DNA from: Trichodesmium erythraeum IMS101 | GTDB lineage: Bacteria > Cyanobacteriota > Cyanobacteriia > Cyanobacteriales > Microcoleaceae | NCBI RefSeq assembly: GCF_000014265.1 | Contig: NC_008312.1 | Coordinates: 2,160,001 to 2,192,000 of the forward strand | Direction: 5' to 3' | DNA: 32,000 nt | Part shown: piece after piece, positions 1 to 31,536 of the stretch | Numbering within the stretch: the stretch's first letter is position 1 | How the letters are laid out: each line of letters opens with the position of its first letter | Program-made: the position numbers and the translations under genes | The notes under the pieces: generated by a model | Databases searched by the model: none | What the model saw: only the letters and a program-made list of their open reading frames with translations | Told to the model about the DNA's origin: nothing

Positions 1-41
1 TTTAATAATTCTTTTTCTCTTAATTGTTGAATTACTTTTCT

Positions 42-473
42 CTAATCTGGGCATTCTGTTGGTCTTTCTGGGTGCTGGTCAGGACGTGAATATTTGTATG
101 GTTGTTGTTTAAAATCATAGAGTTTGTGGAGTAACCAACGTTCTTGATGATAGTCAGATTTTGGTCTAGGAGTTTGAATAGTATTTAGCCAATCTTGGGG
201 AAATTCTTGAATGATAAATTCCCATTGGCGTTTCAAGTTATAAGTGCGAATATCATGGAATATTTCTTCAGTAAAAATTTGTTTATCACCTATTGATTCG
301 TAATGAGTAACAAGTTTACCATAGTCAAATTTAAAGACTCGATTTGCAACAATTACATCACCTAAAAAAGTCTTTTTTTTATTACCTGCACAAACTCCGG
401 TCATTGCTAAACAACGAGGTTTTAATTCTGAAATAAGTCGAGTGACTAGATTATTAGTGTAGTTTTCTCCCAT
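42..473 (-). CDS. Truncated PNP_UDP-like (nucleosidase-fold) protein, 143 aa; possibly a gene remnant
   Basis: The ORF lies 26 nt downstream of the Roc-COR gene on the same strand. LISELKPRCLAMTGVCAGNKKKTFLGDVIVANRVFKFDYGKL aligns by eye with AIAYFKPDVILFVGVAGGIKDVQLGDVVAATKVYGYESGKV of the 6252..7331 product (central strands of the PNP/MTA-nucleosidase fold). The N-terminal strands and the EME and ISD catalytic segments are missing. The stop lies 41 nt from the window edge. Confidence 0.5.
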   Translation of the reverse strand: MGENYTNNLVTRLISELKPRCLAMTGVCAGNKKKTFLGDVIVANRVFKFDYGKLVTHYESIGDKQIFTEEIFHDIRTYNLKRQWEFIIQEFPQDWLNTIQTPRPKSDYHQERWLLHKLYDFKQQPYKYSRPDQHPERPTECPD

Positions 474-499
474 TTCTACAGGACGAGCTGCTGCTATAT

Positions 500-2746
500 T
501 TAATCGCGTACCATATATCTAAGTTTTGATAATAAATCTATATTTATTACATTATCAATTAAACTCTTTATATTAACTTCATTATAAGGATGATTCTCAC
601 AGGTAGTTTTTAGTCTACCATTACGAATCCATTCTTTTAATTTTTCAAGTTTATAAAAATGTGGATTCTGGCTATTTTTACAAGCAGCACAAGTACAAGG
701 AAATAAGTGATTATATTTGAGTCGATTATTATAGGAACTGTGAATTTTATCTAATAGGTAAGTTACGAGAGTCATTAAAGCCCGTTTTTGTCGTCCAGAA
801 ACCCTAATTTTTATTTCTCTTCTGTCGTAATATTCAATTACCTCTGCTCTGGTTTCATTTTGCTTGATAATAACTCCCCTTTTCCAAACATATTTCTGTT
901 GTTCAATATCTCGGTGCATATCTACAATAAACTGAGTGATAATTCCTCTGGGCATAAATTTGTAGGTGTAACGTAAAATCAAATTGTTATTTTCATCCCA
1001 GTCATATTCTGGTTGATTTTCTGTTAAAAGTTGAGGGGCAATATAGGTCTGAGAATTACCAAGAATTTTATAACATAGTTTAAATCTAATCATTAACTGG
1101 AGTAGTTCATCGCGCATATCCACATATTTTTCTTCATTCCAGATATTGGTTAAATCATCTTTGGTGAATTTGCCGAAGTTATTATAAACTGTCGGATTAT
1201 CTAAGATTTTATAAACTGCCGCTATTCCCCATTCTGGTTTGAGAATAACTGTTTTATTTAACAGTGGGTTATCCTGAAAATGAAGACAAATTCCTAAGTC
1301 ATGTAAATAGCGACTTAACTGTAATTTATACTCCAATTTTGTCAAGCCATTTTGTTTACAAATAGATAAATATTCTTCTAGACTAATATAGTTACGGGAG
1401 TCTAATTCTAAGATTTCCCGGACTTGTTTCCAAGTTTTAGGTAAACTACTGCCAATATGGGGTAATTCACTAATATGATGTTCGATTTCTCTGATAATTT
1501 CTTCTAAACCGCGATTAGTTTCAAGGTTGGTAGCTAAGATTTCTTTAATGTTAGTAAATTGCCCTTGCAATCCCCGTTGATTAATTTCTCGTTGCCGTTC
1601 ATGTTTCTCATTTTTCACAATTAATAAGGGGCTATTATCGCTTAATAATTCTACTACATTGAGCCAATAATAAAAGTCTGTATCTTCTTTGCGAGTATCA
1701 ACGACAAGGATATATAGAGAGCGTTTTGTTAAGAAAAATTGGTGGGTAGTGTGATAAATTTCTTGTCCGCCAAAATCCCAAATATTTATTTGAAAGTCAT
1801 TTTGGTTTTTTGTCTTAAAGTTGTACTGATAAACTTCAATTCCTTTGGTTGTATCTTCATCTTTGAGTTGATAGTTTGGGTTGATAATTTTATTAGCTAA
1901 AGCTGTTTTACCAGCTCCAGCTTCTCCAACAATTAGTAATTTAGCTTCACAGATATAATCTATTCCTTTTTCTGGAGGAAACTCTGCCAAAAACTTTTTA
2001 ATAACAGGATGAATTAAGAAAAACTTCTCATTACCTAATTTGACCTCCTCCCCATCTCCAAACTCTTCTTTTAACTCCTCAATTTCCTCCCCTAACCCCT
2101 CCTTTTCATCAACCAATAACTTTGCCAAAACATGAGAATTAAGCACCAAATTTTGATACTCTTTCCATAAATTAGTCTGCTCCAAAGGTTGAGCCAAAAT
2201 CTCCACTAAATAAGGAATTTTTTCTTGACCAGCTAACCCCAAAACCGGATTATCTTCCGGCAAACTTTCAGATAAAAAGCTCTCCATTTCCCGAATTGTC
2301 CTATCGGGATCTAAATAAGCTTGAGCAATCCATTCTTGAACCATTCTTAACTCTCCAGATGGTTTTCTCTCCCCTTGTTTATCCAAATAAAACCACAAAA
2401 ATTCAGCCAATTCAAAAGGTCGTCGCCAACCAAATTTATCCTCCAATTCCTCCAACAAAACTTCCCTCACACAAGGCTCAACCTCATAAACTCCCTCTTG
2501 TAAAGGACGACATAAAGAAGACAACAAAAAATTACTTTCTCCTATCCAAGGAATATTTTCCTCATCCAAAAAATTAATCCGAATTAAATTAACTAATTCA
2601 GGAGTTAAAATCAAAAACAACCCACAATGACAAGCAAGCTTAAAATTTTCTTCTCCAAAACGACGCTCAAATCTTACCACCTCTTCCACGGCATTCTCCG
2701 GAGATAGCCATAGCTTTCTAACAACCGCCTCAATAGTTTTAACCAT
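500..2746 (-). CDS. Roc-COR (Roco-type) GTPase with an uncharacterised ~260-aa N-terminal helical region
   Basis: 748-aa ORF whose start overlaps the vWA stop by 8 nt. It has a Ras-like G domain: G1 LLIVGEAGAGKTAL and G3 IWDFGGQE. The G4 position reads VKNEKHE rather than NKxD. A COR-like region follows (LPKTWKQVREIL ... YLHDLGICLHFQDNPLLNKTVILKPEWGIAAVYKILD). An acidic linker (EEIEELKEEFGDGEE) precedes the G domain, and there is a C-terminal Cys/His cluster CTCAAC...CENH. Confidence 0.85.
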   Translation of the reverse strand: MVKTIEAVVRKLWLSPENAVEEVVRFERRFGEENFKLACHCGLFLILTPELVNLIRINFLDEENIPWIGESNFLLSSLCRPLQEGVYEVEPCVREVLLEELEDKFGWRRPFELAEFLWFYLDKQGERKPSGELRMVQEWIAQAYLDPDRTIREMESFLSESLPEDNPVLGLAGQEKIPYLVEILAQPLEQTNLWKEYQNLVLNSHVLAKLLVDEKEGLGEEIEELKEEFGDGEEVKLGNEKFFLIHPVIKKFLAEFPPEKGIDYICEAKLLIVGEAGAGKTALANKIINPNYQLKDEDTTKGIEVYQYNFKTKNQNDFQINIWDFGGQEIYHTTHQFFLTKRSLYILVVDTRKEDTDFYYWLNVVELLSDNSPLLIVKNEKHERQREINQRGLQGQFTNIKEILATNLETNRGLEEIIREIEHHISELPHIGSSLPKTWKQVREILELDSRNYISLEEYLSICKQNGLTKLEYKLQLSRYLHDLGICLHFQDNPLLNKTVILKPEWGIAAVYKILDNPTVYNNFGKFTKDDLTNIWNEEKYVDMRDELLQLMIRFKLCYKILGNSQTYIAPQLLTENQPEYDWDENNNLILRYTYKFMPRGIITQFIVDMHRDIEQQKYVWKRGVIIKQNETRAEVIEYYDRREIKIRVSGRQKRALMTLVTYLLDKIHSSYNNRLKYNHLFPCTCAACKNSQNPHFYKLEKLKEWIRNGRLKTTCENHPYNEVNIKSLIDNVINIDLLSKLRYMVRD

Positions 2747-3899
2747 GCAAATTAACTCCCATTGGAAAAGGATATCCTAACAATATTTTAACCAAATCAT
2801 TTAATCCTTGTGGATTTAAAGAATACATAGGAATAAACGTAGCAATATCTTCAGCAGTGGTCATCCTCCACTGAAATTCTGGAACAGGGTTTAACCATCC
2901 ATATAAATAAGTTTTATCAGATAATTGCCGTATAAATTCCTTAGTTTGATGGAATCTTTCACTATCATAAGTGCGCCGTGCCGCCCCCCCATCACTAACA
3001 ATAACCACACTATTATTACCAACTTCCTGAGATAAAATTTCCTCAATAGGCAAAGGCTTAGTTAAATTAGGTTTAGTAAATAGATAACCCCTCGGCACAT
3101 TGTGAAAATAAAAAATATTCTTTTGATTTAACAACCCTACTTTTTCAATACTTTCCTGTAAAGTATCAATCAACAATTTAAAAGGAGACATGGAACCTTC
3201 ACAGTCAATTAACAAAACCAACTTAACTTGATTTTTTCTAGAAGGTTGTAAAACCACACCAGAGAAAAAACCCATTTTATAAAATAGATTAATTGTTCCT
3301 TGAACATCTAAATTTTCCGGCGCACCCTCTCGTTTTAACAACCTTAAATTACGCCAAATACTAGTCATTTCTCGGCGAGTTATTGGTAAACGGGGAATCA
3401 AATTATAACTTTGTCTAAATCTCAGTTTTATTGGGGTTATTTCTGACAGAGATTTTCTCGAAAAATCGCGAATTGGGATTGAATTAGTTGGTTGATTAGG
3501 TTGAGGTTTATTTTCCTTTTGAACTTTAGATGAAACTTGAGAAATAGGATTACTATTAATATCTAAATTTTCAGTCTTTTGAGGAGGAGAAGTAGAATCC
3601 TCATCAATTTTAGGCAATGGAGATTTATCAGCTTCTAGTAATTGCTTTTCTAACTCAGGTCTAACTAACTCCTCAAACAATTGATTAAAAATATATTGGT
3701 CTTCTAAAGACTTAACCCATAACAAACATAAAAGTCGTTTTAAACGTTCAATATCCTGCCACGCCCCTCGAGATTGAATCATTTTAATCGCCAGTAAATA
3801 TTCAGAAATTCCCACGGGAATATCCTTTTGCCTCAACCTATTAAATAAAGGCAATAAAATAGTTTCAAATTCAACGATTAATAATTCAAAGTCAACCAT
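2739..3899 (-). CDS. vWA-domain protein, CoxE-like N-terminal region
   Basis: 386-aa ORF. The C-terminal half shows vWA hallmarks: KLVLLIDCEGSMSPF (MIDAS-like, but D-x-E-x-S instead of D-x-S-x-S) and NSVVIVSDGGA. The N-terminal helical part (FNRLRQKDIPVGISEYLLAIKMI...) resembles CoxE-type vWA proteins. A P/S/N/Q-rich linker lies between the two. The gene is paired with a MoxR gene upstream, which is the classic arrangement. Confidence 0.8.
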   Translation of the reverse strand: MVDFELLIVEFETILLPLFNRLRQKDIPVGISEYLLAIKMIQSRGAWQDIERLKRLLCLLWVKSLEDQYIFNQLFEELVRPELEKQLLEADKSPLPKIDEDSTSPPQKTENLDINSNPISQVSSKVQKENKPQPNQPTNSIPIRDFSRKSLSEITPIKLRFRQSYNLIPRLPITRREMTSIWRNLRLLKREGAPENLDVQGTINLFYKMGFFSGVVLQPSRKNQVKLVLLIDCEGSMSPFKLLIDTLQESIEKVGLLNQKNIFYFHNVPRGYLFTKPNLTKPLPIEEILSQEVGNNSVVIVSDGGAARRTYDSERFHQTKEFIRQLSDKTYLYGWLNPVPEFQWRMTTAEDIATFIPMYSLNPQGLNDLVKILLGYPFPMGVNLHG

Positions 3900-4062
3900 T
3901 TATTAATTTTCAGCTTATCTACTGGTTTGGTATTGGATTTTGTTGCTTTATTAGTGTTTAGTTTCGCGAATCAACCAAATCTAAGCTCTTTTACCTCAAC
4001 CTATTAAATAAAGGCAATAAAAGAGCTTCAAATTCAACAATTAATAATTCAAAATCAATCAT
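3831..4062. repeat. Direct duplication of the vWA gene 5' end (69-bp copies at 3831-3899 and 3994-4062, offset 163 bp)
   Basis: The two copies differ at 5 of 69 positions. Copy 2 encodes a relic start, MIDFELLIVEFEALLLPLFNRLR-stop. Its ATG (4062-4060) overlaps the MoxR stop (4057-4055) in an ATGATTGA arrangement. Confidence 0.9.
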
Positions 4063-5092
4063 TTTTTAACTTTTCTATAGTATTTTGGTCACTTTGATTT
4101 TTTACTAAAGTATGGAGAAAAGGAAGTTGATATAATTTAGTCTCCCTTAAAACTTCAGCTTTGATTTCCTGATACTCCTGAGTTGTATTATTTGGCAATC
4201 CTCTTTCTAAAAGTCGCAACCAATTAATAAACTCTCCCGTACTAGGTTTTTTCCGCCAAGAAATATCGTCACGAAGTTCTACAAATTTAGTTAAAGCAAC
4301 TTCAAAAAGAGGAGAAACATCCTGTTGAAAATGATTAATAATAATCTTCCTCAAATCCTCCTTATTCGGAAAGCCAATATAATAAAACAGACAGCGACGT
4401 AAAAAAGCCTTAGGTAATTCTTTCTCTTGATTACTCGTAATAATAATCAAAGGCAAAAAATCCTTTCTGTCTTCCCGCTCCTCTCCTCGAAGAGCATCAT
4501 ATTTCAAGTTTTTTACCTCCTTTACTTCAAACTGTAACCTATCTAAAACCAACAGTAAATCATTAGGAAAATCAATATCAGCCTTATCAACTTCATCAAC
4601 CAAAACCACCGAAGGAATATTATTTTTATCAGAAAGCTCAATAGCCTCTCCTAACTTGCCCAACTCTATATATGTTTCCCGGTCAATAACATTAGTTACT
4701 TGAGGTGAATTATTAATATCTTTCTCCTCTAATTTACCCTGAATCAATCTATATTCTTGAAGGTCATATAAACGGCGAATATTATCATAAGTATAGAGTA
4801 ATTCTTCAGCCCGAATCGTAGAACGAATATAACATTCTTTCAAAGGATAACCCAACTCATAAGCAATAGAATAAGCAAGACGAGTTTTACCACAACCAGG
4901 TTCACCTTCCAACAATAAAGGGCGGCGTAAATAGAGAGCATCATTGACTGCCTCAGCCAAATTTTTAGAAGCAATATAAGGTTCTTTTTTTATGGGTATA
5001 TCTAGAAATTCTTTCCCCTTTTCGTCTTTTAATCGTTCATACTTTTGGTCATTACCTTGACCTTCATATTGTCTATTTGCTAAGTCGTTCAT
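4055..5092 (-). CDS. MoxR-type (AAA_5-like) AAA+ ATPase
   Basis: 345-aa ORF with Walker A LLLEGEPGCGKTRLA, Walker B PSVVLVDEVDKADIDFPNDLL, a sensor-1-like IIITSNQ, and arginines in LPKAFLRRC. It sits directly upstream of a vWA gene. Confidence 0.9.
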   Translation of the reverse strand: MNDLANRQYEGQGNDQKYERLKDEKGKEFLDIPIKKEPYIASKNLAEAVNDALYLRRPLLLEGEPGCGKTRLAYSIAYELGYPLKECYIRSTIRAEELLYTYDNIRRLYDLQEYRLIQGKLEEKDINNSPQVTNVIDRETYIELGKLGEAIELSDKNNIPSVVLVDEVDKADIDFPNDLLLVLDRLQFEVKEVKNLKYDALRGEEREDRKDFLPLIIITSNQEKELPKAFLRRCLFYYIGFPNKEDLRKIIINHFQQDVSPLFEVALTKFVELRDDISWRKKPSTGEFINWLRLLERGLPNNTTQEYQEIKAEVLRETKLYQLPFLHTLVKNQSDQNTIEKLKND

Positions 5093-5107: not shown

Positions 5108-6181
5108 TCAATTAATTGCTCGTAGTTCGTCAATAATTCCTTCAAGAGTATTATAAGTAGAAAGCAAATGACCATCAGCATTTCTTAACTTTCTAAGGCA
5201 TGTATTTATCATATCATCTTGTATCTGTAATTTTTGAAGATAACCCCTAAACCAGTCACATAATTCATTAATTTGAAATGATTTAGGTATGCTCAGGTTA
5301 ATACAACCCTGAATAGATTGTTTTATCTTAACATTAGCAAAAATAATAATTAAACAGCGACTTTTATTTTCTAAATAGCAATTACATTTCGTTTTTATTT
5401 CTGATAAAAAAATATCTGTCATCGAATTTAAATTTTTTTTATTGATATTGTAATTCCAAATTATTAATACAACATCTAAAGGATCAGTCTCAGCTAATAA
5501 ATCAGTTATTTGATTTATGTTGTTATTTTTTAAGTCATCATCAATTGATTTTAAATTCCGACTCAATCTAATCTCACGAGACCAATAATCACGTTGAGTT
5601 TTCTCCTGTAATTCGTGGAGAATTCTCTCAATAATATAATTCTTTAAAATTGTGTACTCTTCCCCAAGACTAAAAGCAAAAACTCCTTGATAATCTAATG
5701 CTTTTCTAAATTTGTAGACTAACTCATCTAAATCATATTTAACAATTATATTGTTATCTTTATTATTATCTTTATTATTATCTTTTATTTTGATAGGTGT
5801 TTTAGATGTCGGTATTTCATGGTTTTGTTGCCTTTTTTTAGACATACGTGAACGATGATCAGGAATTTGGTTTATTCGCGATCGCTTGGGCTTAAGTTTT
5901 TCAATATATCCTTTGATAGTCAATCTTTCATCTGGATCTAATTTATTTTGCAAATATATCAAAAAAGATTCTAAATCTTCTGGTTTCTTTAAAATTAAGC
6001 TATAAAAATTAGTGACTAACTCTTTCACAGGTAACTTGTAATCTATTGTCGTTATATCAATTTGTACCTCACTAATATTTATCATTGCTTTTAAACCTTC
6101 GCTAGGTTTTTCTAGCCCATTAAAATAGTCAGTTAAAATTTCCTCTAACTTAATTTTTTCATCAATACTCAACTTGAACAT
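5108..6181 (-). CDS. Adaptor protein: N-terminal effector-associated-type domain, KDNN repeat linker, C-terminal degenerate NTPase-like domain (function unknown)
   Basis: 357-aa ORF that ends 15 nt upstream of the MoxR start. Residues ~9-80 are about 50% identical to the C-terminus of the 6252..7331 product. The linker contains KDNNKDNNKDNN, encoded by 3 x 12 bp at 5752-5787. The C-terminal part shows strand-helix patterns reminiscent of a P-loop NTPase without a P-loop (GVFAFSLGEEYTILKNYII; DVVLIIWNYN; CLIIIFANV). Confidence 0.7.
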   Translation of the reverse strand: MFKLSIDEKIKLEEILTDYFNGLEKPSEGLKAMINISEVQIDITTIDYKLPVKELVTNFYSLILKKPEDLESFLIYLQNKLDPDERLTIKGYIEKLKPKRSRINQIPDHRSRMSKKRQQNHEIPTSKTPIKIKDNNKDNNKDNNIIVKYDLDELVYKFRKALDYQGVFAFSLGEEYTILKNYIIERILHELQEKTQRDYWSREIRLSRNLKSIDDDLKNNNINQITDLLAETDPLDVVLIIWNYNINKKNLNSMTDIFLSEIKTKCNCYLENKSRCLIIIFANVKIKQSIQGCINLSIPKSFQINELCDWFRGYLQKLQIQDDMINTCLRKLRNADGHLLSTYNTLEGIIDELRAIN

Positions 6182-6251: not shown

Positions 6252-7331
6252 TTACCGAATCATTGCAATGATTTTATTAACAAATAATTGTTCATCAGAA
6301 TCTTTAAGTAAATGACTCCGAAAAACTCTCAGAAAAGATAGAGAATTCTCCCTACTTTTAAAAATTTCAGGATAAAAATTAGGAATTAACTCTCTCACAG
6401 GTAAATTGTAATCTATTGCCGCTGTATCAACCTGTATCTGACTAATATTTACTAATGACTTTAAATGTTGACCAGGTTTCTGCCGAGCATTAAAATAGTC
6501 AATTAAAACCTCTTGTAATTTCATACTTTCCTCAAAATTATCAGCCAAAAAATTAGAAGACTTTGGATGACTTTCCCCATTATATTCTTGATTTCTACTT
6601 AACCAAAACTTCCCTAAAACCTCAAAAGCAAAAGCACTAGCATGACGAGCAGCTATTTCTTGAAAACCCCCTTCATCCGCCCTACTTTTCCCATCAATTA
6701 AATCAGAAATACCCCGAATAATTAAAGCCGAAACCTGTTGATTAGCATGAGCAACTTTTAAAATACCATGACCTTCCATTTCCACTGCTAAAGCATCACC
6801 ATAATTGTGCTGAAGAAACTCAAATAAATCTGATTTCTTATTAGTAACCACCTTTTCTCCCGCAGCAATAGGCTCAACAAATACATTAGGTTGAGCTGAA
6901 TCAGAAAATCTAGCTAACCAATCTCTTTTTCTTGCCTCAGCTTTTGCCCGTTGAATCAAATTATAAGTTGAACGGCCAACATCCGGCCTTGGCCTAAAAG
7001 TCTCAGCCACCTTTCCCGACTCATAACCATAAACCTTAGTAGCAGCAACCACATCTCCCAATTGGACATCCTTAATTCCTCCAGCTACCCCAACAAATAG
7101 AATCACATCAGGCTTAAAATAAGCGATCGCTCTCTCAGCCTCCATCGCTGCAGGAGAATTTCCAGCACCAGTCTGGACAATACCCACTTCCCACTCTTGG
7201 CCACCAACAGAAAATTGGCCCCTCTCATAAATTGTCCCATTAGGGTGTATCTCCTCCCTCAAATCACTAAGATGAGCAGATACCGCCATATATTCGATAC
7301 GAATTGCTGTTAAAATAACCGCACAAACCAT
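6252..7331 (-). CDS. PNP_UDP_1-family nucleosidase/phosphorylase fused to a C-terminal effector-associated-type domain
   Basis: 359-aa ORF and first gene of the cassette. Residues 1-~240 form a complete MTA/SAH-nucleosidase-like fold (VQTGAGNSPAA, ILFVGVAGGI, LAVEMEGHG, IIRGISDLIDG). The EME and ISD motifs match the catalytic Glu and Asp motifs of E. coli MTAN. Residues ~270-359 form a helical domain homologous to the N-terminus of the next gene. Confidence 0.85.
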   Translation of the reverse strand: MVCAVILTAIRIEYMAVSAHLSDLREEIHPNGTIYERGQFSVGGQEWEVGIVQTGAGNSPAAMEAERAIAYFKPDVILFVGVAGGIKDVQLGDVVAATKVYGYESGKVAETFRPRPDVGRSTYNLIQRAKAEARKRDWLARFSDSAQPNVFVEPIAAGEKVVTNKKSDLFEFLQHNYGDALAVEMEGHGILKVAHANQQVSALIIRGISDLIDGKSRADEGGFQEIAARHASAFAFEVLGKFWLSRNQEYNGESHPKSSNFLADNFEESMKLQEVLIDYFNARQKPGQHLKSLVNISQIQVDTAAIDYNLPVRELIPNFYPEIFKSRENSLSFLRVFRSHLLKDSDEQLFVNKIIAMIR

Positions 7332-11223: not shown

Positions 11224-11295
11224 GCGGGTATAGCTCAGTGGTAGAGCGCAACCTTGCCAAGGTTGATGTCGCGCGTTCGAATCGCGTTACCCGCT
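11224..11295 (+). tRNA. tRNA-Gly (anticodon GCC)
   Basis: It folds by hand into a cloverleaf. The acceptor stem is GCGGGTA/TACCCGC, the D arm GCTC-AGTGGTA-GAGC, and the anticodon arm CAACC-TTGCCAA-GGTTG. The T arm is GCGCG-TTCGAAT-CGCGT. CCA is not encoded. Confidence 0.95.
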
Positions 11296-17666: not shown

Positions 17667-19061
17667 TTAATGCAAATAATTTGATATTATATACTGCTTC
17701 AGCACAGCTAAAACAGCAAATAAATTATCTTGTTTTGTTACTAAACAACGTCTTTTTAATGATTGTATTCCTTTCCATAAATCTGAGTGTAAAAGTGGAA
17801 AGTCTGGGGAAGTATTATAAATATCTACTGCTGTTTCTTGACTTGCCATCCATAATATTACTTGCTTTTCTAGCTCTGACAAACGCTGAAAATATTTGTC
17901 TAATATCGGTTCTAAATCTCCTAAATATATACTAGGGCAAGATAAAATTTGAGCTATATTTCCATTAAATAAATCTTCGACCGCATCAGCAATAATATTT
18001 AACCACAAAGGATTTCCGCTATAGAGATTAATCAACTCTAAGGATTGCTCTTCATCTGTTAAGTTTATATCTTTTAAAATTGCTACTGCTGACTTTCCTA
18101 AACCATCAATTTTTAAAGTCTGACAATGATTATTAGTTGATATTATTTTTGGTTTTTCTTGACTCAGAAGTAACAAACAACTTTGATGAGATAATGTAGC
18201 TATTTGTTGGAAAAATTTACCATAATTTTCATGTTCTTGCAGATAAGTACCAGCTAGTTTTCCACTAGCAAAAATTTCTTGTAAATTATCAAAAATAAGT
18301 AAACAACGATATTTCCGGAGGTAATCTATTAATTGATTGTTGATGGTTTGAGACTTAGAAATTTTTTCTTTTTTTTGGGATGTAAAATCTGTTTGAGATA
18401 AAAATTTAAGAATGTTTATTTGTAGAGATTCACAGGAGGAGTAGTTGTCAATATTGCGCCAGATTATATAATCAAATTTATTTTTTATTTGTGCAATTAA
18501 TTCTACAGTGAGAGTACTTTTGCCGATGCCAGTTAATCCTAATATGGTGATGATGCGGCTGTGATTTTGTAGTATCAATTGTTTGAGGGTGGTAACTTCG
18601 GAGTGGCGATCGCACAGGGGATATAAATCAGGAGCTTCAGATAAATCATAATAATTTTCTGGGTTAGTGTTGTCTTGGTTTTGGTCAATGAGAGTGGGGG
18701 AAGATTTGTTTTTAGGGGTGGGAGATTGTTTGTTTTCTCCACAGATATTTATATGATTACTATTAATATTTACGCAGTCATCACCTGTATTTGAAATATG
18801 TGAAAAGTGGATTTTTTCTAATATGGAACGAGCATTAGATTTTTTGATATTTTTTCCTAAAATATCCGAAAGAAGTTTCCATAATTTTGTACCTACCTGT
18901 TTGATATGGTCGGGATGACGTTGACAATCATCTGCTATTTGGGGGTATTTTTTACCATTTAAAGTACCTTTTAATACTTCCTTTTGTAGAGAGGTTAAAT
19001 GTTCTCTAGTTTTGGTGAATATTAAATTGTCTGCTAATTCTACTAATGTGTCAATGTCCAT
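17667..19061 (-). CDS. NB-ARC/STAND ATPase with an N-terminal HTH-like domain and no C-terminal sensor repeats
   Basis: 464-aa ORF. The N-terminus (LTSLQKEVLKGTLNGKKYPQIADDCQ...IKQVGTKLWKLLSDILGKNIKKSNARSILEKI) is the HTH-like module common at the start of cyanobacterial STAND/WD40 proteins. Walker A is ITILGLTGIGKSTL, Walker B is RCLLIFDNLQ, and the GxP motif is YSGNPLWLNIIA. A winged-helix-like tail (LSELEKQVILWMA) follows. The stop lies 31 nt from the IS630 relic end. Confidence 0.85.
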   Translation of the reverse strand: MDIDTLVELADNLIFTKTREHLTSLQKEVLKGTLNGKKYPQIADDCQRHPDHIKQVGTKLWKLLSDILGKNIKKSNARSILEKIHFSHISNTGDDCVNINSNHINICGENKQSPTPKNKSSPTLIDQNQDNTNPENYYDLSEAPDLYPLCDRHSEVTTLKQLILQNHSRIITILGLTGIGKSTLTVELIAQIKNKFDYIIWRNIDNYSSCESLQINILKFLSQTDFTSQKKEKISKSQTINNQLIDYLRKYRCLLIFDNLQEIFASGKLAGTYLQEHENYGKFFQQIATLSHQSCLLLLSQEKPKIISTNNHCQTLKIDGLGKSAVAILKDINLTDEEQSLELINLYSGNPLWLNIIADAVEDLFNGNIAQILSCPSIYLGDLEPILDKYFQRLSELEKQVILWMASQETAVDIYNTSPDFPLLHSDLWKGIQSLKRRCLVTKQDNLFAVLAVLKQYIISNYLH

Positions 19062-23388: not shown

Positions 23389-25057
23389 CTATACGCAATC
23401 TTGATTAACAATTTTCTGATATTTTTTATTAAAAATAACTAACTTATCTCGTTTTTTAATAACTATCATTGACAACCTAAAATTCATTTGTATGGTGCCA
23501 TTATTAACTTTAATTTCTACCTGTAATAATTTTTTTTGATATGGCCTAAATAATTGATGTGCGAGTAGAATTTTACTGAGTAAATAATGGCGAGTATATT
23601 TTAAATGAGTAGACTGATTTTTATCCTTCCAATCTGTCAAAATATGTTATTTTATCAAACTATCAATATCTAGTTGATTAGTACCTAAAAAATCAATAAT
23701 AATTTTACAAATTTTTTGACTTAAAAAAGGTTGATTACCACTCCTATCAAAAACTTTTTATCAAACAGCTTCTAGTTCATCAACCACTCCTTTTAAAACC
23801 TCAGTTAATTTTTTTCATCTTTAAAAGTTAACTGTCTTAATTCAATCCCATTATTAATATTAAAAGGAGTCTGTTTGCTATCTATAACCAAATCTTCTGG
23901 AGTTGCTGCTCCAAAAAAACAAAAACTAACCATTGTAATTAATTTTATAGCTTCTAATTGATGTAATTCAATATTTTTATTTGGTAAACTTAAAGGTGAA
24001 ATAGCTTTTAATATTTGACTAAAAACTGCTTTAATATTTTTCTGATTAGACAAATTTTTAAATGTGCACTTAAATGTTGTTGATAGATTCCACTTTCAGT
24101 AGTAGTAGTATATTTTAATAGCTCTTCAATTGTTAATTCATCCTCCAACATTTTATACAATTCTAATCTGATTAAATAGGGATGACCTCTTATTATAGAC
24201 ATCAAAGAAACTACTACTGTTATTGGTAATTTATATAAATCTGCTAACTTAGTGACTTGCTCTGGTATAAATTCTTTTAATTCTATAGGTAAACCAACAT
24301 TAAAAGGAGAAAGATGAATATCTAATTTGCCATAATATTCTGTAGAATAAGCAATTACCATTCGTAAATTTTCCAAAATTTCTTTATGGTTGCTCGCCTC
24401 ATACCAACTTTTTAATATGAGAAAAAAGTCTCTAGATATTTCTGGATAGTTAAAAATTTTATCGACTTCATCTAAGATTAAAACTACTACTTTATCTTAA
24501 TGATATAAGAGATCCTCAATTTTTTCAGTTCAAGATATTTTACCATTTTTGTCGTCCCATCTATTCCTGTTAGGAGCATCAGGAAACTGACGTTTAATAT
24601 TTTTACTGAATGCTTTAATAAAATTATTAATATTTTTAATATTTTCTAGTTCAATTAGTTTGTCAAATCTGAGATAAATAGATTTATATTTATTTTTAAT
24701 TGCATGAGCTTCTATCTGCGTTAATAGAGAATTTATACCCATTTGTTTTGGCATTTTAATTTTGATTAAACAATCAGGAACTTCTATATTTTTATAGTAT
24801 TTTTCTTCGATATAACATTTTCTAATTCGATAACTTTCTATATAAAAAGCAGAATCTAGTTTTTCTTGTCTACCAGGAATTACAATTTTGCGAGCACTAG
24901 AAAAATATTTATCTTTCAACTTCTGACAAACTAAGTAGGGTTGATATTTATTGAATATTTCTACTAAAAAATCTTGAGACTATTGAGCATAACTATAGTT
25001 TTTTGAAAAACCAAATTTAACAGCGATCGCCTTTAATTTTTTACTGATATTTGTCAT
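23389..25057 (-). pseudogene. One or two decayed AAA_35-like (PF14516-type) conflict-system NTPase genes
   Basis: The collinear minus-strand fragments are as follows. The P-loop region is IKIKMPKQMGINSLL (24530..24919). Next come SPFNVGLPIELKEF...IIRGHPYLIRLELYKM...ESGIYQQHLSAHL (24008..24376) and FFGAATPEDLVIDSKQTPFNINNGIELRQLTF (23805..24053). The last two are GNQPFLSQKICKII (~23700) and TDWKDKNQSTHLKYTRHYLL (23389..23640). Stops and frameshifts separate them. Confidence 0.5.
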
Positions 25058-28782: not shown

Positions 28783-31536
28783 CTACTTAACAATAGAGAA
28801 ATCAGTTCCTTTTAGGTTCGGTTTCCCTTCCAGAATAGCAAAATTACCGCCACTACCAAAGCCAGCCTCGCTACCATTCTCATTGTAGAACAAATCACCG
28901 GTTTCTTTGCTGTAAACGATAAATGCGTCACTAGTTTCAGCCTCCTCATTGTTAGCAACGGCATCAAATTCAGCGATAACGCTAAAACCTTTACCTAAAG
29001 TGCTTTCTAACTTATCAAAAGTTTTTTGGCTTAAAAGAATAGCATCCTGGCCACTTTTAAAATCAGTTATGGTATCTAGGCCAAAGTCTTCAGGCTTAAA
29101 AGAGCTATTGCTACTAAACTTAAAACGATCTTTACCCTGACCTCCAGTTAAGGTATCATCGTCATTACCTCCCATCAACATGTCATTACCCTTACCCCCA
29201 GTCAGGATGTCATCATCATTACCTCCCATCAACATGTCATTACCCTGACCCCCAGTAAGAGTATCGTTACCATCCAAACCTTTGAGCCGGTTTCGCTTTG
29301 TATTACCAGTAATATTGTTATCTAACTCGTTACCAGTACCATTAATATTGCCCTTACCAATCAATCTCAAATCTACTTCTTCGTCTTTGAGGGTATGGTT
29401 TTTGTTCGACTTGATAGCTTCGGGAGGCTTCTCACCTTGATTATAAAGCACAGAGAATTGATTAGTAGTCTCAGTGGAGAATTGAGCCTGAGCTATATCT
29501 ATGTTGCCATCCTCATTGAAATCTCCCAAAGCAAAATTGTTACTTTGAAGAAAACTTTCACTTTTGGTTTCTAAGGTCTTGGGAGTAGTAGAAAAATTGC
29601 CTTTGCCATTCCCTAAAAATACGGATATTGTTTTAGGGGAGGAATATGGGGAATATGGACCAGGCAAATCTGGGGAATATGGACCAAACGAAAAATTATT
29701 CTTGAACGTTGCTATGTCGAAGTTACCGTCGCCATTAAAATCTCCTACGATGGCATCATCGATCTGCTCTTCCAATTTGACGGTTTTTCCTTCCTTAAAT
29801 TTACCCTTACCTTGACCTAACAACACCTGAATTTTTTGAGATTCGTCAGGATCCATTCCTCCTGTCCGTACCACTAAATCTTGTTTGCCGTCCTTGTTAA
29901 TGTCACCTCCTCCTACAAGGTCAATCAGATTTTCTACTTTAACATCAACAGATTTATCCAATTTGCCGTTTGTCTTGCTCAGGTCAATGCGGATCGAGCT
30001 TTCTCTAGATGTTTCAGTTGAACTGACTGTTATATCGTCTAATCCATCATTGTTGACGTCTTCAATGGAGAGGAAGGGGAAACTATCTTCCTCAAAAGCA
30101 ACTTCTGTATCCAGAGTAAATTTACCTTTACCGTCTCCCAGAAGTAAGGAAATTTTTTGCTTGCTGGGGCCAAGATCAGAATAATCATAATATCCCGAAG
30201 ATCCCGAATATGACAGAATGGCTAGATCGAGGTTGCCATCGCCGTTAAATTCACCTACTCCTACCAGTCCATCATCTTCTAACATAATGCTGGATGTTTT
30301 TAAGGGTTTAAACTTGCCATTTTTCTGCCCCAAGTCTATAGAAATTGTAGTTTTTCCAGAGGAGTAGTTGAAAACGCTCTTCACCCGATCCATCAAACCG
30401 TCACCGTTGAAGTCTCCGAGCGCTACTGGATTAAATTTGGCGTCGAAAGCTGCAAAAGGAGAATTATCAACCGCCTCAAACTTTTGGTTTTTTCTTAATC
30501 GTATCTCGATCTTGCTTGGGGTAGAGAATGAGGATGAGTAATTGCTTAAAGACAAATCATCTAAACCGTCGTTATTAACATCTGCAAAGGATATCAAATC
30601 GGTATTTATGACATTAAGTTGGGTATCGACGGTTAGTTTCCCTGTATCGTCTACCTTTAAAGCCGTAATTTTGCCGAAAGTCTCATTAGTTTTTGTGTTA
30701 TATGCACTGGTAACTGCTACTGCGTCTAGGTTGCCATTTCCGTCGAGTTCTCCTATTTGGATGTCAGTGGGATTACCTAGCAACTCCAGACTTTTGCTAC
30801 GCTTTGGAAATTTGCCTTTTCCATTTCCGAATTCGATGAAGACTGTTGTAATGGGGGATAATGTATCTGGGTCTATAGATCCTTCCAGAACTATGCGGTC
30901 TAATTTTTCATCTTTGTTGAAGTCTCCAAAGGCAAAATAAGCTGGTAGATCTTCGAATTCATAGAAGACTGGAGAGTCTTGGGATGGGATAAATTTTATC
31001 TCCAAAAGTCCCGGGTAGTTGGCGATCGCCTCTGATACAAGTTGATTTTCCCCTATTTGATTTTCCAGTTGAGAAGTTCCACCAAGAGCTATATTTCCCA
31101 CTTTGTCTCTGGATGCAGCTATATTCGCTCCCGTTAACTGCTGGAGGCGGCCTATAAATTCTTCATCTCTGGCAACGCTACAGGCATATAGTTGAATTTC
31201 CTTGACTCCCCATTCCGAGAGTAAGTAGTTGTATTCATCTATGTTGCTAGCTTTAAGCAGCTTGTTGCCAAGATACAAAGTACCAGGCTCGCCGTGACAG
31301 ATAATACTCAGACTTTCTGCATTTGTTTGGGATAGTGCTTCGGAGATTTGAGATATCGCGTCCCTATCTCCATCTAATAAAACTATAGACTTTTGCCCTG
31401 CTATCCCTCTGACTAATTGAGGGTAATGTTCTAGAGATTTATCTATTGCTACTAAAGACTTTTCCGTTCTTACTTCCTTAGTGAATGTTGATATAACTGA
31501 GGAAGCTGTAGCATTATTATTGTGAGCTACTATCAT
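28783..31536 (-). CDS. Large secreted DUF4347 / FG-GAP (VCBS) repeat / RTX calcium-binding repeat protein, probable T1SS substrate
   Basis: 917-aa ORF. The N-terminus is DUF4347-like (LVAIDKSLEHYPQLV...SLSIICHGEPGTLYLGNKLL...IQLYACSVA...GANIAASRDKVGN). There are at least 8 FG-GAP-type units (GDFNGDGNLD, GEFNGDGNLD, GDFNEDGNID, ADVNNDGLDD ...). C-terminal RTX nonapeptides read GLDGNDTLTGGQGNDMLMGGNDDDILTGGKGNDMLMGGNDDDTLTGGQGKDRF. There is no N-terminal signal peptide. Confidence 0.9.
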   Translation of the reverse strand: MIVAHNNNATASSVISTFTKEVRTEKSLVAIDKSLEHYPQLVRGIAGQKSIVLLDGDRDAISQISEALSQTNAESLSIICHGEPGTLYLGNKLLKASNIDEYNYLLSEWGVKEIQLYACSVARDEEFIGRLQQLTGANIAASRDKVGNIALGGTSQLENQIGENQLVSEAIANYPGLLEIKFIPSQDSPVFYEFEDLPAYFAFGDFNKDEKLDRIVLEGSIDPDTLSPITTVFIEFGNGKGKFPKRSKSLELLGNPTDIQIGELDGNGNLDAVAVTSAYNTKTNETFGKITALKVDDTGKLTVDTQLNVINTDLISFADVNNDGLDDLSLSNYSSSFSTPSKIEIRLRKNQKFEAVDNSPFAAFDAKFNPVALGDFNGDGLMDRVKSVFNYSSGKTTISIDLGQKNGKFKPLKTSSIMLEDDGLVGVGEFNGDGNLDLAILSYSGSSGYYDYSDLGPSKQKISLLLGDGKGKFTLDTEVAFEEDSFPFLSIEDVNNDGLDDITVSSTETSRESSIRIDLSKTNGKLDKSVDVKVENLIDLVGGGDINKDGKQDLVVRTGGMDPDESQKIQVLLGQGKGKFKEGKTVKLEEQIDDAIVGDFNGDGNFDIATFKNNFSFGPYSPDLPGPYSPYSSPKTISVFLGNGKGNFSTTPKTLETKSESFLQSNNFALGDFNEDGNIDIAQAQFSTETTNQFSVLYNQGEKPPEAIKSNKNHTLKDEEVDLRLIGKGNINGTGNELDNNITGNTKRNRLKGLDGNDTLTGGQGNDMLMGGNDDDILTGGKGNDMLMGGNDDDTLTGGQGKDRFKFSSNSSFKPEDFGLDTITDFKSGQDAILLSQKTFDKLESTLGKGFSVIAEFDAVANNEEAETSDAFIVYSKETGDLFYNENGSEAGFGSGGNFAILEGKPNLKGTDFSIVK

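Follow-up and report, generated by a model that had tools for sequence, protein, structure and literature searches.

Why does a Roc-COR GTPase stand directly behind a MoxR-vWA gene pair in Trichodesmium erythraeum IMS101, and is it a working part of that operon? We analyzed this question in a window of 32,000 nucleotides (contig NC_008312.1, positions 2,160,001 to 2,192,000), in which the Roc-COR gene occupies 500..2746 on the minus strand; all coordinates given below are those of the window. We consider it rather probable that this gene supplies an iSTAND-type MoxR-vWA conflict system with its variable fourth component and that it is a working or recently working module. The general features of interest at this locus belong to larger groups, and the specific fusion is lineage-specific and uncertain in function.

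The Roc-COR gene and its N-terminal domain

The open reading frame (ORF) is complete, encodes 748 aa, and was divided from the ORF list, Pfam, and phmmer into an N-terminal domain (hereafter N-dom), an acidic linker, Roc, COR-A, and COR-B. The 3 Pfam domains were contiguous and far above their curated cut-offs, with Roc at residues 269-380 (91.7 bits; cut-off 27), COR-A at residues 436-574 (157 bits, E 3.8e-46; 1025..1441), and COR-B at residues 587-732 (139.6 bits, E 8.2e-41; 551..988), all on the minus strand. Pfam, phmmer, and the clade alignment described below placed the Roc G domain at residues 262-430 (1457..1963, minus strand), with G1 GEAGAGKT, switch I Thr300, and G3 DFGGQ. The best phmmer match in all PDB sequences was Roc-COR-A of Methanosarcina barkeri Roco2 (4wnr, E 3.3e-52), followed by Chlorobium tepidum Roco (3dpu, E 2e-41; 6hlu) and LRRK2, and COR-A aligned to both 4wnr and 3dpu. 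On these sequence grounds, the protein is assigned to the true Roc-COR proteins, as the original prediction had it, with the Pfam matches and the alignment to solved Roco structures excluding another TRAFAC family. Its predicted location in a MoxR-vWA operon also stands, with the vWA gene and the MoxR gene directly upstream. The start of the Roc-COR gene and the stop of the vWA gene overlap by the claimed 8 nt (shared letters ATGGTTAA), and the 2 genes are probably translationally coupled. No LRR (leucine-rich repeat), WD40, or other repeat family was found among the Pfam matches of the 748-aa protein, which agrees with the earlier statement that it lacks recognizable repeats; the absence is secondary, however, with LRRs directly following the same N-dom in sister haplotypes.

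The helical N-terminal region of about 260 aa with an acidic linker, as described from the sequence, was reproduced by the AlphaFold model and consists of 2 parts. N-dom comprises residues 1-215 (2102..2746, minus strand), is mostly helical with one beta-hairpin, and was modeled confidently (pLDDT 84, pTM 0.81), and residues 216-261 (EGLGEEIEELKEEFGDGEEV...; 1964..2101, minus strand) form an acidic, poorly ordered linker. Residues 1-261 had no Pfam match even at E<=10, and the N-dom model matched no PDB fold in Foldseek at E<=0.001, so that the suggestion of a domain unlike any known or housekeeping domain held up in both searches. The best folds retrieved were ArsR-type winged helices (E 1.8, about 95 residues), and a known or housekeeping identity for residues 1-261 was ruled out.

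The N-dom family is nevertheless widespread. A word-based search recovered only 21 relatives, which were fused to LRR, PNP, TIR, FGE-sulfatase, or TPR modules or stood alone, whereas a profile search of 1.84 billion representatives identified 1,824 N-dom cluster representatives, with 1,591 of these at E<=1e-10. N-dom was almost always N-terminal, in proteins of 200-1,660 aa, and it is followed by a conserved acidic stretch, G[DE][EK][EQ]xL. A Pfam scan of 54 N-dom proteins found no family covering N-dom itself and identified FGE-sulfatase, NB-ARC, AAA_16, AAA_22, TIR, CHAT, TPR, HEAT, WD40, RelA/SpoT, HATPase, N6_Mtase, and EAD1 as its C-terminal partners.

We examined the genomic setting of N-dom in 54 loci, obtained from one scan of species-representative genomes with the N-dom alignment and spanning cyanobacteria, Chloroflexi, Desulfobacteraceae, Nitrospirales, Acidobacteria, Gemmatimonadetes, Planctomycetes, Zoogloea, and Accumulibacter. 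A vWA homologue was identified directly upstream on the same strand in 53 of them, usually abutting or overlapping the N-dom start, and MoxR preceded vWA wherever the sequence sufficed; at the remaining locus (L039), no vWA was detected within about 1 kb upstream of N-dom. The third-component core, described below, was recognized by its profile in 26 loci, mostly among the closer loci. Every neighborhood that we read had the order third component, MoxR, vWA, and N-dom joined to a variable module X, and the cassette was orthologous in Desulfonema, Nostoc, Gomphosphaeria, and other loci. N-dom thus marks the gene following vWA, and we infer that it is a docking domain joining the variable module to the MoxR-vWA core. 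The family was unannotated and is tightly syntenic, and the iSTAND-type conflict systems are already published.

Roc-COR followed N-dom in none of the 54 species representatives. One locus, in a metagenome-assembled genome of Pyrinomonadaceae (L048, 5272-9225), encodes N-dom, WD40, a Roc/Ras-like GTPase with the G4 sequence "ARAD", a region of about 350 aa, and TIR, and a Roc-type GTPase has therefore been recruited to the position behind vWA at least twice. The region of about 350 aa between this GTPase and TIR contains a CxxH...CxxC motif. In Desulfonema limicola (L001, 9571-11066), the orthologous fourth gene encodes N-dom fused to FGE-sulfatase (FGS) and is followed by HRDC and reverse-transcriptase genes, which are a diversity-generating retroelement (DGR) aimed at the cargo module. 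Further, a metagenomic representative of doubtful quality (P0225) carries a vWA region (100-287) and then N-dom (342-462) in a single polypeptide. The contig is GC-rich, and the join is either genuine or an error of gene calling; a genuine fusion would favor N-dom genes as split-off C-terminal arms of vWA proteins.

The upstream operon and known MoxR-vWA systems

On the minus strand, the operon runs 5' to 3' as PNP, third component, MoxR, vWA, and the Roc-COR gene. Kaur, Burroughs, Iyer and Aravind (eLife 2020; PMC7159879) described iSTAND ternary systems as an extension-less MoxR and a vWA protein with a CoxE-type N-terminal domain, accompanied by an inactive STAND protein with effector-associated domains (EADs) or bDLD1, the latter reported at the N-termini of iSTAND proteins; these systems have FGS and DGR cargo and are enriched in multicellular bacteria. 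We find it fairly probable that the operon fits this class, and its components were compared with the published ones one after another.

The MoxR-type AAA+ ATPase (4055..5092, minus strand; Pfam AAA_5, E 6e-11) has 345 aa with Walker A GEPGCGKT and Walker B VDEVD, a size near that of the iSTAND-type MoxR proteins, and, like them, it is without the W/R-motif extensions of VMAP-type proteins, no WxhapG or PsWRxa motif being readable in the 345-aa sequence. The vWA protein (2739..3899, minus strand; 386 aa) has CoxE-like similarity, which would agree with the iSTAND class, as judged from Pfam, NCBIfam, and an orthologue alignment, with a Pfam VWA_CoxE score of 23.5 bits that lies under the cut-off of 26.4 and an NCBIfam match to SAV_2336_NTERM at E 5e-10; its D232-x-E-G-S-M and D303 are invariant among orthologues. 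It stops at 386 aa, and the variable module lies on the next gene behind N-dom and is not fused to the vWA C-terminus, where iSTAND-type systems carry theirs.

The third component (5108..6181, minus strand; 357 aa) appears from AlphaFold, Foldseek, and a family alignment to consist of a putative AAA+/STAND-like core preceded by an N-terminal helical adaptor (about residues 1-100) and a low-complexity linker. It had no Pfam match, and no GK[ST] Walker A was found in the family alignment. Its AlphaFold model is of low confidence (pLDDT 62) and matched ORC1, Cdc6, TRIP13, RFC, and Apaf-like AAA+ folds in Foldseek at E about 4e-4. The family profile matched a syntenic 543-aa protein carrying Pfam bDLD1 (E 1.4e-19) and gave nothing useful among PDB sequences (best E 1.1). 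A putative core of this kind without Walker A, an N-terminal adaptor, and a family member with bDLD1 would agree with an iSTAND-type system. The first gene encodes a PNP/MTA-nucleosidase-like effector (6252..7331, minus strand; 359 aa), assigned from domain-library matches, with a C-terminal helical adaptor. The 2 adaptors, at residues 6-89 in the third component and 266-351 in the PNP protein, are 46.5% identical (E 1e-21), and an effector enzyme bearing an adaptor that matches a core component is likewise an iSTAND-type trait. The shared adaptor matched no Pfam EAD model, which sets it apart from the published systems, and it may be an undescribed effector-associated domain. At the DNA level, it forms a repeat of 77% identity (6002-6165 and 6372-6535).

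Likeness to the iSTAND class extends to the highly variable sensor/effector module, including the FGS with DGR of the Desulfonema orthologue, and to the enrichment in filamentous or aggregating bacteria. The operon differs from the class in that the variable module is carried by a separate gene that overlaps vWA and begins with an N-dom of about 215 aa, and no description of N-dom was found in the text of PMC7159879. The module also differs in kind, being Roc-COR here, whereas iSTAND systems use AIG-type GTPases "instead of AP-GTPases" (PMC7159879).

Roc ("AP-GTPase")-COR cargo is rare and was reported in VMAP-type systems of cyanobacteria and verrucomicrobia (PMC7159879). These systems, such as that of Calothrix PCC 6303 (AFZ01290.1), resemble the present operon in having a MoxR-vWA pair with variable sensing modules and, rarely, this cargo. 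Unlike in the operon, Roc-COR there goes with the vWA component as a C-terminal effector fusion and not with an N-dom gene. A VMAP-type system was ruled out, with no VMAP-C protein present, no Pfam match of any kind in the gene before MoxR, and family links of that gene to bDLD1/iSTAND-like proteins. The operon further differs from both VMAP-type and Esr systems in having no kinase, FHA, or beta-propeller; Esr, which belongs to a different subtype, gave the first experimental support for a MoxR-vWA module relaying a threat signal (bioRxiv 10.64898/2026.09.08.750141). PADLOC models gave marginal P-loop (mad8, IetA, TRIP13) and PNP effector matches and no named system.

Promoter and terminator scans returned matches at chance level only. 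An 86-nt direct repeat (90.7% identical; 3825-3910 and 3988-4073) covers the regions around the MoxR stop and the vWA start and appears to be a local copy of the vWA 5' end. The MoxR-vWA spacer is 155 nt in the window vs abutting or overlapping genes in several orthologous loci (L001, L003, and L005).

Origin of the fusion and state of the locus

Downstream of the Roc-COR gene lies an out-of-frame remnant of the ancestral PNP module (1..512, minus strand; called as an ORF of 143 aa at 42..473), identified by Pfam and by comparison with Okeania; the last 12 nt of the Roc-COR ORF already belong to the PNP homology. The fourth gene of Okeania sp. SIO3B5 (L014) is a single 924-aa ORF with N-dom, PNP, and an EAD8-like region, of which residues 1 to about 255 match N-dom of the window and residues 303-472 match 512..3 at 75% identity. 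The matches on both sides identify the window gene as an N-dom-PNP gene with Roc-COR inserted, and about 490 codons of Roc-COR appear from the sequence to have entered at the acidic linker. In Trichodesmium sister haplotypes (L008 and L007), homology to the window ends within the linker, at 2073 and 1971, respectively, and N-dom is followed by truncated or degenerate LRRs and no Roc-COR; the recombination breakpoints between haplotypes fall in the linker. The joining of N-dom and Roc-COR is a recent, strain- or lineage-specific rearrangement. The Roc-COR core derives from a cyanobacterial LRR-Roc-COR-TM (transmembrane) family, whose LRR and C-terminal membrane tail have been lost here.

The same 748-aa ORF is intact in L006, an independent assembly with 99.8% identity to the window over 8 kb. 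Beyond Roc-COR, L006 has 2 PNP fragments (143 and 129 aa), an IS605 TnpB, and an EAD8 protein, and then an EAD8-PNP gene that is intact; the fragments correspond to its residues 206-348 (98% identity) and 367-493 (92% identity). The 143-aa ORF is a truncated duplicate of the middle of the EAD8-PNP gene a few kb on (L006, 12235-13146 and 15715-17196).

The leading alternative to a working or recently working module is that the ORF is a non- or barely functional chimera, a recombination by-product in a locus that Trichodesmium is losing, with the intact frame reflecting recency and not selection. We regard this as less than probable, and the evidence divides as follows. The history of the locus speaks for it: an ancestral N-dom-PNP-EAD8 gene, intact in Okeania, was broken by the Roc-COR insertion, a stop in PNP, and IS605 TnpB, and the sister haplotypes do without Roc-COR. 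At its 3' junction, the insertion does not keep the reading frame of the PNP remnant. The protein has neither the LRR nor the membrane tail of about 140 aa found in most homologues. A codon comparison (Nei-Gojobori, 474 codons) gave a dN/dS of 0.43-0.65 on the window branch vs 0.29-0.30 on paralogue branches, a modest rise, and this comparison did not separate a functional from a decaying gene. The window also has few long ORFs between 7 and 32 kb and contains other gene fragments. At 24008-24919 on the minus strand, a single Pfam AAA_35 domain is divided between adjacent ORFs of 122 and 129 aa, which are a split or pseudogenized gene; this fits, together with the scarcity of long ORFs, a genome rich in decayed genes.

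On the other side, the insertion is in frame on its 5' side, where Roc-COR is fused to N-dom, and dN/dS is still <1. The 748-codon ORF, in DNA of 32% G+C, is unbroken in 2 assemblies, and the nearest sampled Roc-COR paralogue is just 84% identical, so that the fusion need not be very recent. The Roc-COR core keeps all clade-invariant G1, G2, G3, G4, and G5 residues and the 4 cysteines described below, and of the 181 clade-conserved positions only 5 carry another residue (H instead of Q, N instead of D, I instead of T, R instead of K, and F instead of I; clade median 1, 90th percentile 6).

We hold the working or recently working module to be the likelier account, and several points weigh against it. 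The out-of-frame 3' junction, the raised dN/dS, and the visible decay of the locus, with its PNP fragments, IS605 TnpB insertion, and haplotypes without Roc-COR, have been given above. Without the LRR sensor and the membrane tail, the Roc-COR core may be impaired. The defense role and the mechanism of iSTAND-type systems are themselves drawn from published comparative genomics, Roc-COR cargo is atypical for a class described with AIG-type GTPases, and the modeled iSTAND-like character of the third component depends on a weak fold match and the bDLD1 link. The original prediction took the overlap with the vWA gene to argue for stoichiometric co-production and a physical complex; as the architecture arose by insertion of Roc-COR, a stable, co-evolved complex of Roc-COR with vWA and MoxR is not established. 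With its truncated cassette and decaying locus, the Trichodesmium gene itself is a poor model.

Nucleotide-binding motifs, cysteine motif, and proposed mechanism

The original prediction also claimed an atypical G4 motif for this gene. In phmmer alignments, N-E-K-H after the LLIV strand lies opposite N-K-I-D of 4wnr and 3dpu, with N379-E-K-H-E383 at 1598..1612 on the minus strand (translation, NEKHE) and the Pfam Roc match ending at E380. Both the Lys and the Asp of NKxD are missing, and [NT]KxD was not found anywhere in the G domain of the protein. The replacement is therefore real in that no canonical motif lies elsewhere, but it is not particular to this gene. We aligned the 119 closest alignable homologues, with 48-84% identity over Roc-COR, most of which are LRR-Roc-COR proteins of Trichodesmium, Okeania, Nostoc, and Moorena. 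The G4 sequence was K-N-E-K-Q/H-[D/N/E]-R in essentially all of them, with N379, E380, K381, and R384 essentially invariant, position 382 occupied by Q (114) or H (4), and position 383 by D (57), N (34), or E (28). G5 was T-N-L across the clade vs S-C-K in the reference structures, whereas the canonical G1, G2, and G3 motifs given above were invariant. Any consequence of these variants for nucleotide specificity consequently applies to the whole clade.

The second structural claim, a C-terminal Cys/His cluster forming a possible zinc site, was borne out in its cysteines (CTCAAC...(26 aa)...C at 599-697) and not in its histidine or its position. The motif C684-x-C686-xx-C689 ...26... C716 (599..697, minus strand), read from the translation and the clade alignment, had C684, C686, and C689 each conserved in 118 of 119 homologues and C716 in 117, whereas His719, the His of "CENH", was Ser in 69 and His in only 2. 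With 4 conserved cysteines and a non-conserved His719, the candidate metal site of the clade, possibly for zinc, would be Cys4 and not Cys/His. It sits within the Pfam COR-B envelope and not in a separate tail. Alignments to C. tepidum Roco stop short of the motif, and a search of the Cys-cluster segment against PDB sequences returned no solved homologue (best E 0.23, an unrelated protein).

Relatives typically run about 200 residues past the first cysteine vs only 65 in the window protein, which ends 32 residues after the fourth cysteine and is without a tail of about 140 residues beyond COR-B. A hydrophobic helix was found inside this C-terminal extension in 5 members from Trichodesmium, Okeania, and Nostoc that were read directly; cyanobacterial LRR-Roc-COR proteins, such as P0009, P0010, P0012, P0013, and P0003, usually run some 140 residues past COR-B, to a strongly hydrophobic helix of transmembrane type at the end. 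The clade may therefore be anchored in the membrane. The window protein thus shares with the LRR-Roc-COR-TM family its G4, its TNL G5, and C-x-C-xx-C...C, and differs from most members in having neither the N-terminal LRRs nor the long C-terminal extension.

Compared with C. tepidum Roco and M. barkeri Roco2, the window protein has the same Roc-COR-A-COR-B order, an intact G1, the switch I Thr, and DxxGQ, and by analogy with prokaryotic Roco proteins it would be expected to be a G protein regulated by nucleotide-dependent dimerization. It differs from them in having no LRR, in G4 (NEKH vs NKID) and G5 (TNL vs SCK), in a Cys4 at the COR-B end, which the alignments to solved structures do not reach, and in an N-terminus formed by a MoxR-vWA-associated docking domain. 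Measured against the features of Roco proteins, the phosphate-binding and switch motifs are present, and the G4 [NT]KxD and the N-terminal LRR are absent. To our knowledge, the prokaryotic Roco proteins reported until now are all typically built with an N-terminal LRR. The missing [NT]KxD does not bar Roco membership, as variation at G4-G5 in Roc domains has already been noted (PMC6337361), and other prokaryotic Ras-like groups can combine a deviant G4 with GTPase activity (PMC4316618). Our literature search found no description of the cyanobacterial Roc G4 variant or of a Cys4 or zinc site in COR.

It is quite unlikely that nucleotide specificity changed (to ATP, XTP, or a relaxed form) specially for this MoxR-vWA-associated protein, with a Cys/His zinc tail as an adaptation to joining vWA and MoxR in a dedicated stoichiometric complex: the missing Lys and Asp of G4, TNL at G5, the D/N/E variation in the residue after G4, and the 8-nt overlap would suit that account, but the G4/G5 variants and Cys4 occur in essentially all 119 homologues, mostly stand-alone LRR-Roc-COR proteins, no MoxR or vWA adjoins the gene in the 2 homologue loci read on both sides (L066 and L067), the histidine is not conserved, the module arrived by lineage-specific insertion, and G4-G5 variation is on record for Roc domains, as is the compatibility of a deviant G4 with GTPase activity for other Ras-superfamily groups.

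Across the N-dom loci, the cassette is conserved and X is freely swapped (FGS with DGR, TIR, NB-ARC/TPR, CHAT, PNP, RelA/SpoT, and LRR); in the operon of the window, the PNP effector and the third component carry the same adaptor. For the variable fourth component of an iSTAND-type system, a mechanism can be proposed from the published MoxR-vWA model (PMC7159879; sensor variant of Doré et al., in which the variable protein was proposed as the sensor) and from Roco biochemistry (PMC6337361). N-dom would tether the cargo to a vWA/MoxR/iSTAND-like assembly, and once a trigger is sensed, ATP hydrolysis by MoxR would remodel the complex. Roc-COR, if active, would provide a nucleotide-dependent dimerization switch where sister systems have a STAND NTPase, and the PNP effector, recruited by adaptor-adaptor pairing, would deplete or convert a nucleotide as the output. 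We speculate that the acidic G[DE][EK][EQ]xL stretch could be a ligand of the vWA metal site.

Two proposals may be combined here, and we advance them jointly as a tentative idea. N-dom would be an unrecognized fourth core component, defining a "quaternary" MoxR-vWA-iSTAND family in which it plugs in interchangeable NLR-like sensors or switches, possibly via an acidic tail at the vWA metal site, and the cyanobacterial Roc-COR clade would have a remodeled base pocket (G4 NEKQ[D/N/E], G5 TNL) and a Cys4 metal site in COR-B. If the pocket is remodeled, the cyanobacterial LRRK2 relatives are not ordinary guanine-specific switches, and the G4/G5 changes and Cys4 of the 119 homologues offer a cheap lead for Roco biochemistry. 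If the chimera is active, it places an LRRK2-type Roc-COR switch in the STAND/NLR NTPase position of a bacterial conflict system and would support the idea that Roco proteins started as immune-type switches. N-dom, unnamed but widespread, can now be annotated as a putative docking element of MoxR-vWA systems.

Elsewhere in the window, a 464-aa NB-ARC/STAND NTPase protein is encoded at 17667-19061 and a 917-aa protein with DUF4347, FG-GAP, and RTX repeats at 28783-31536, both on the minus strand. The sole Rfam match in the window was one tRNA at 11224-11295.

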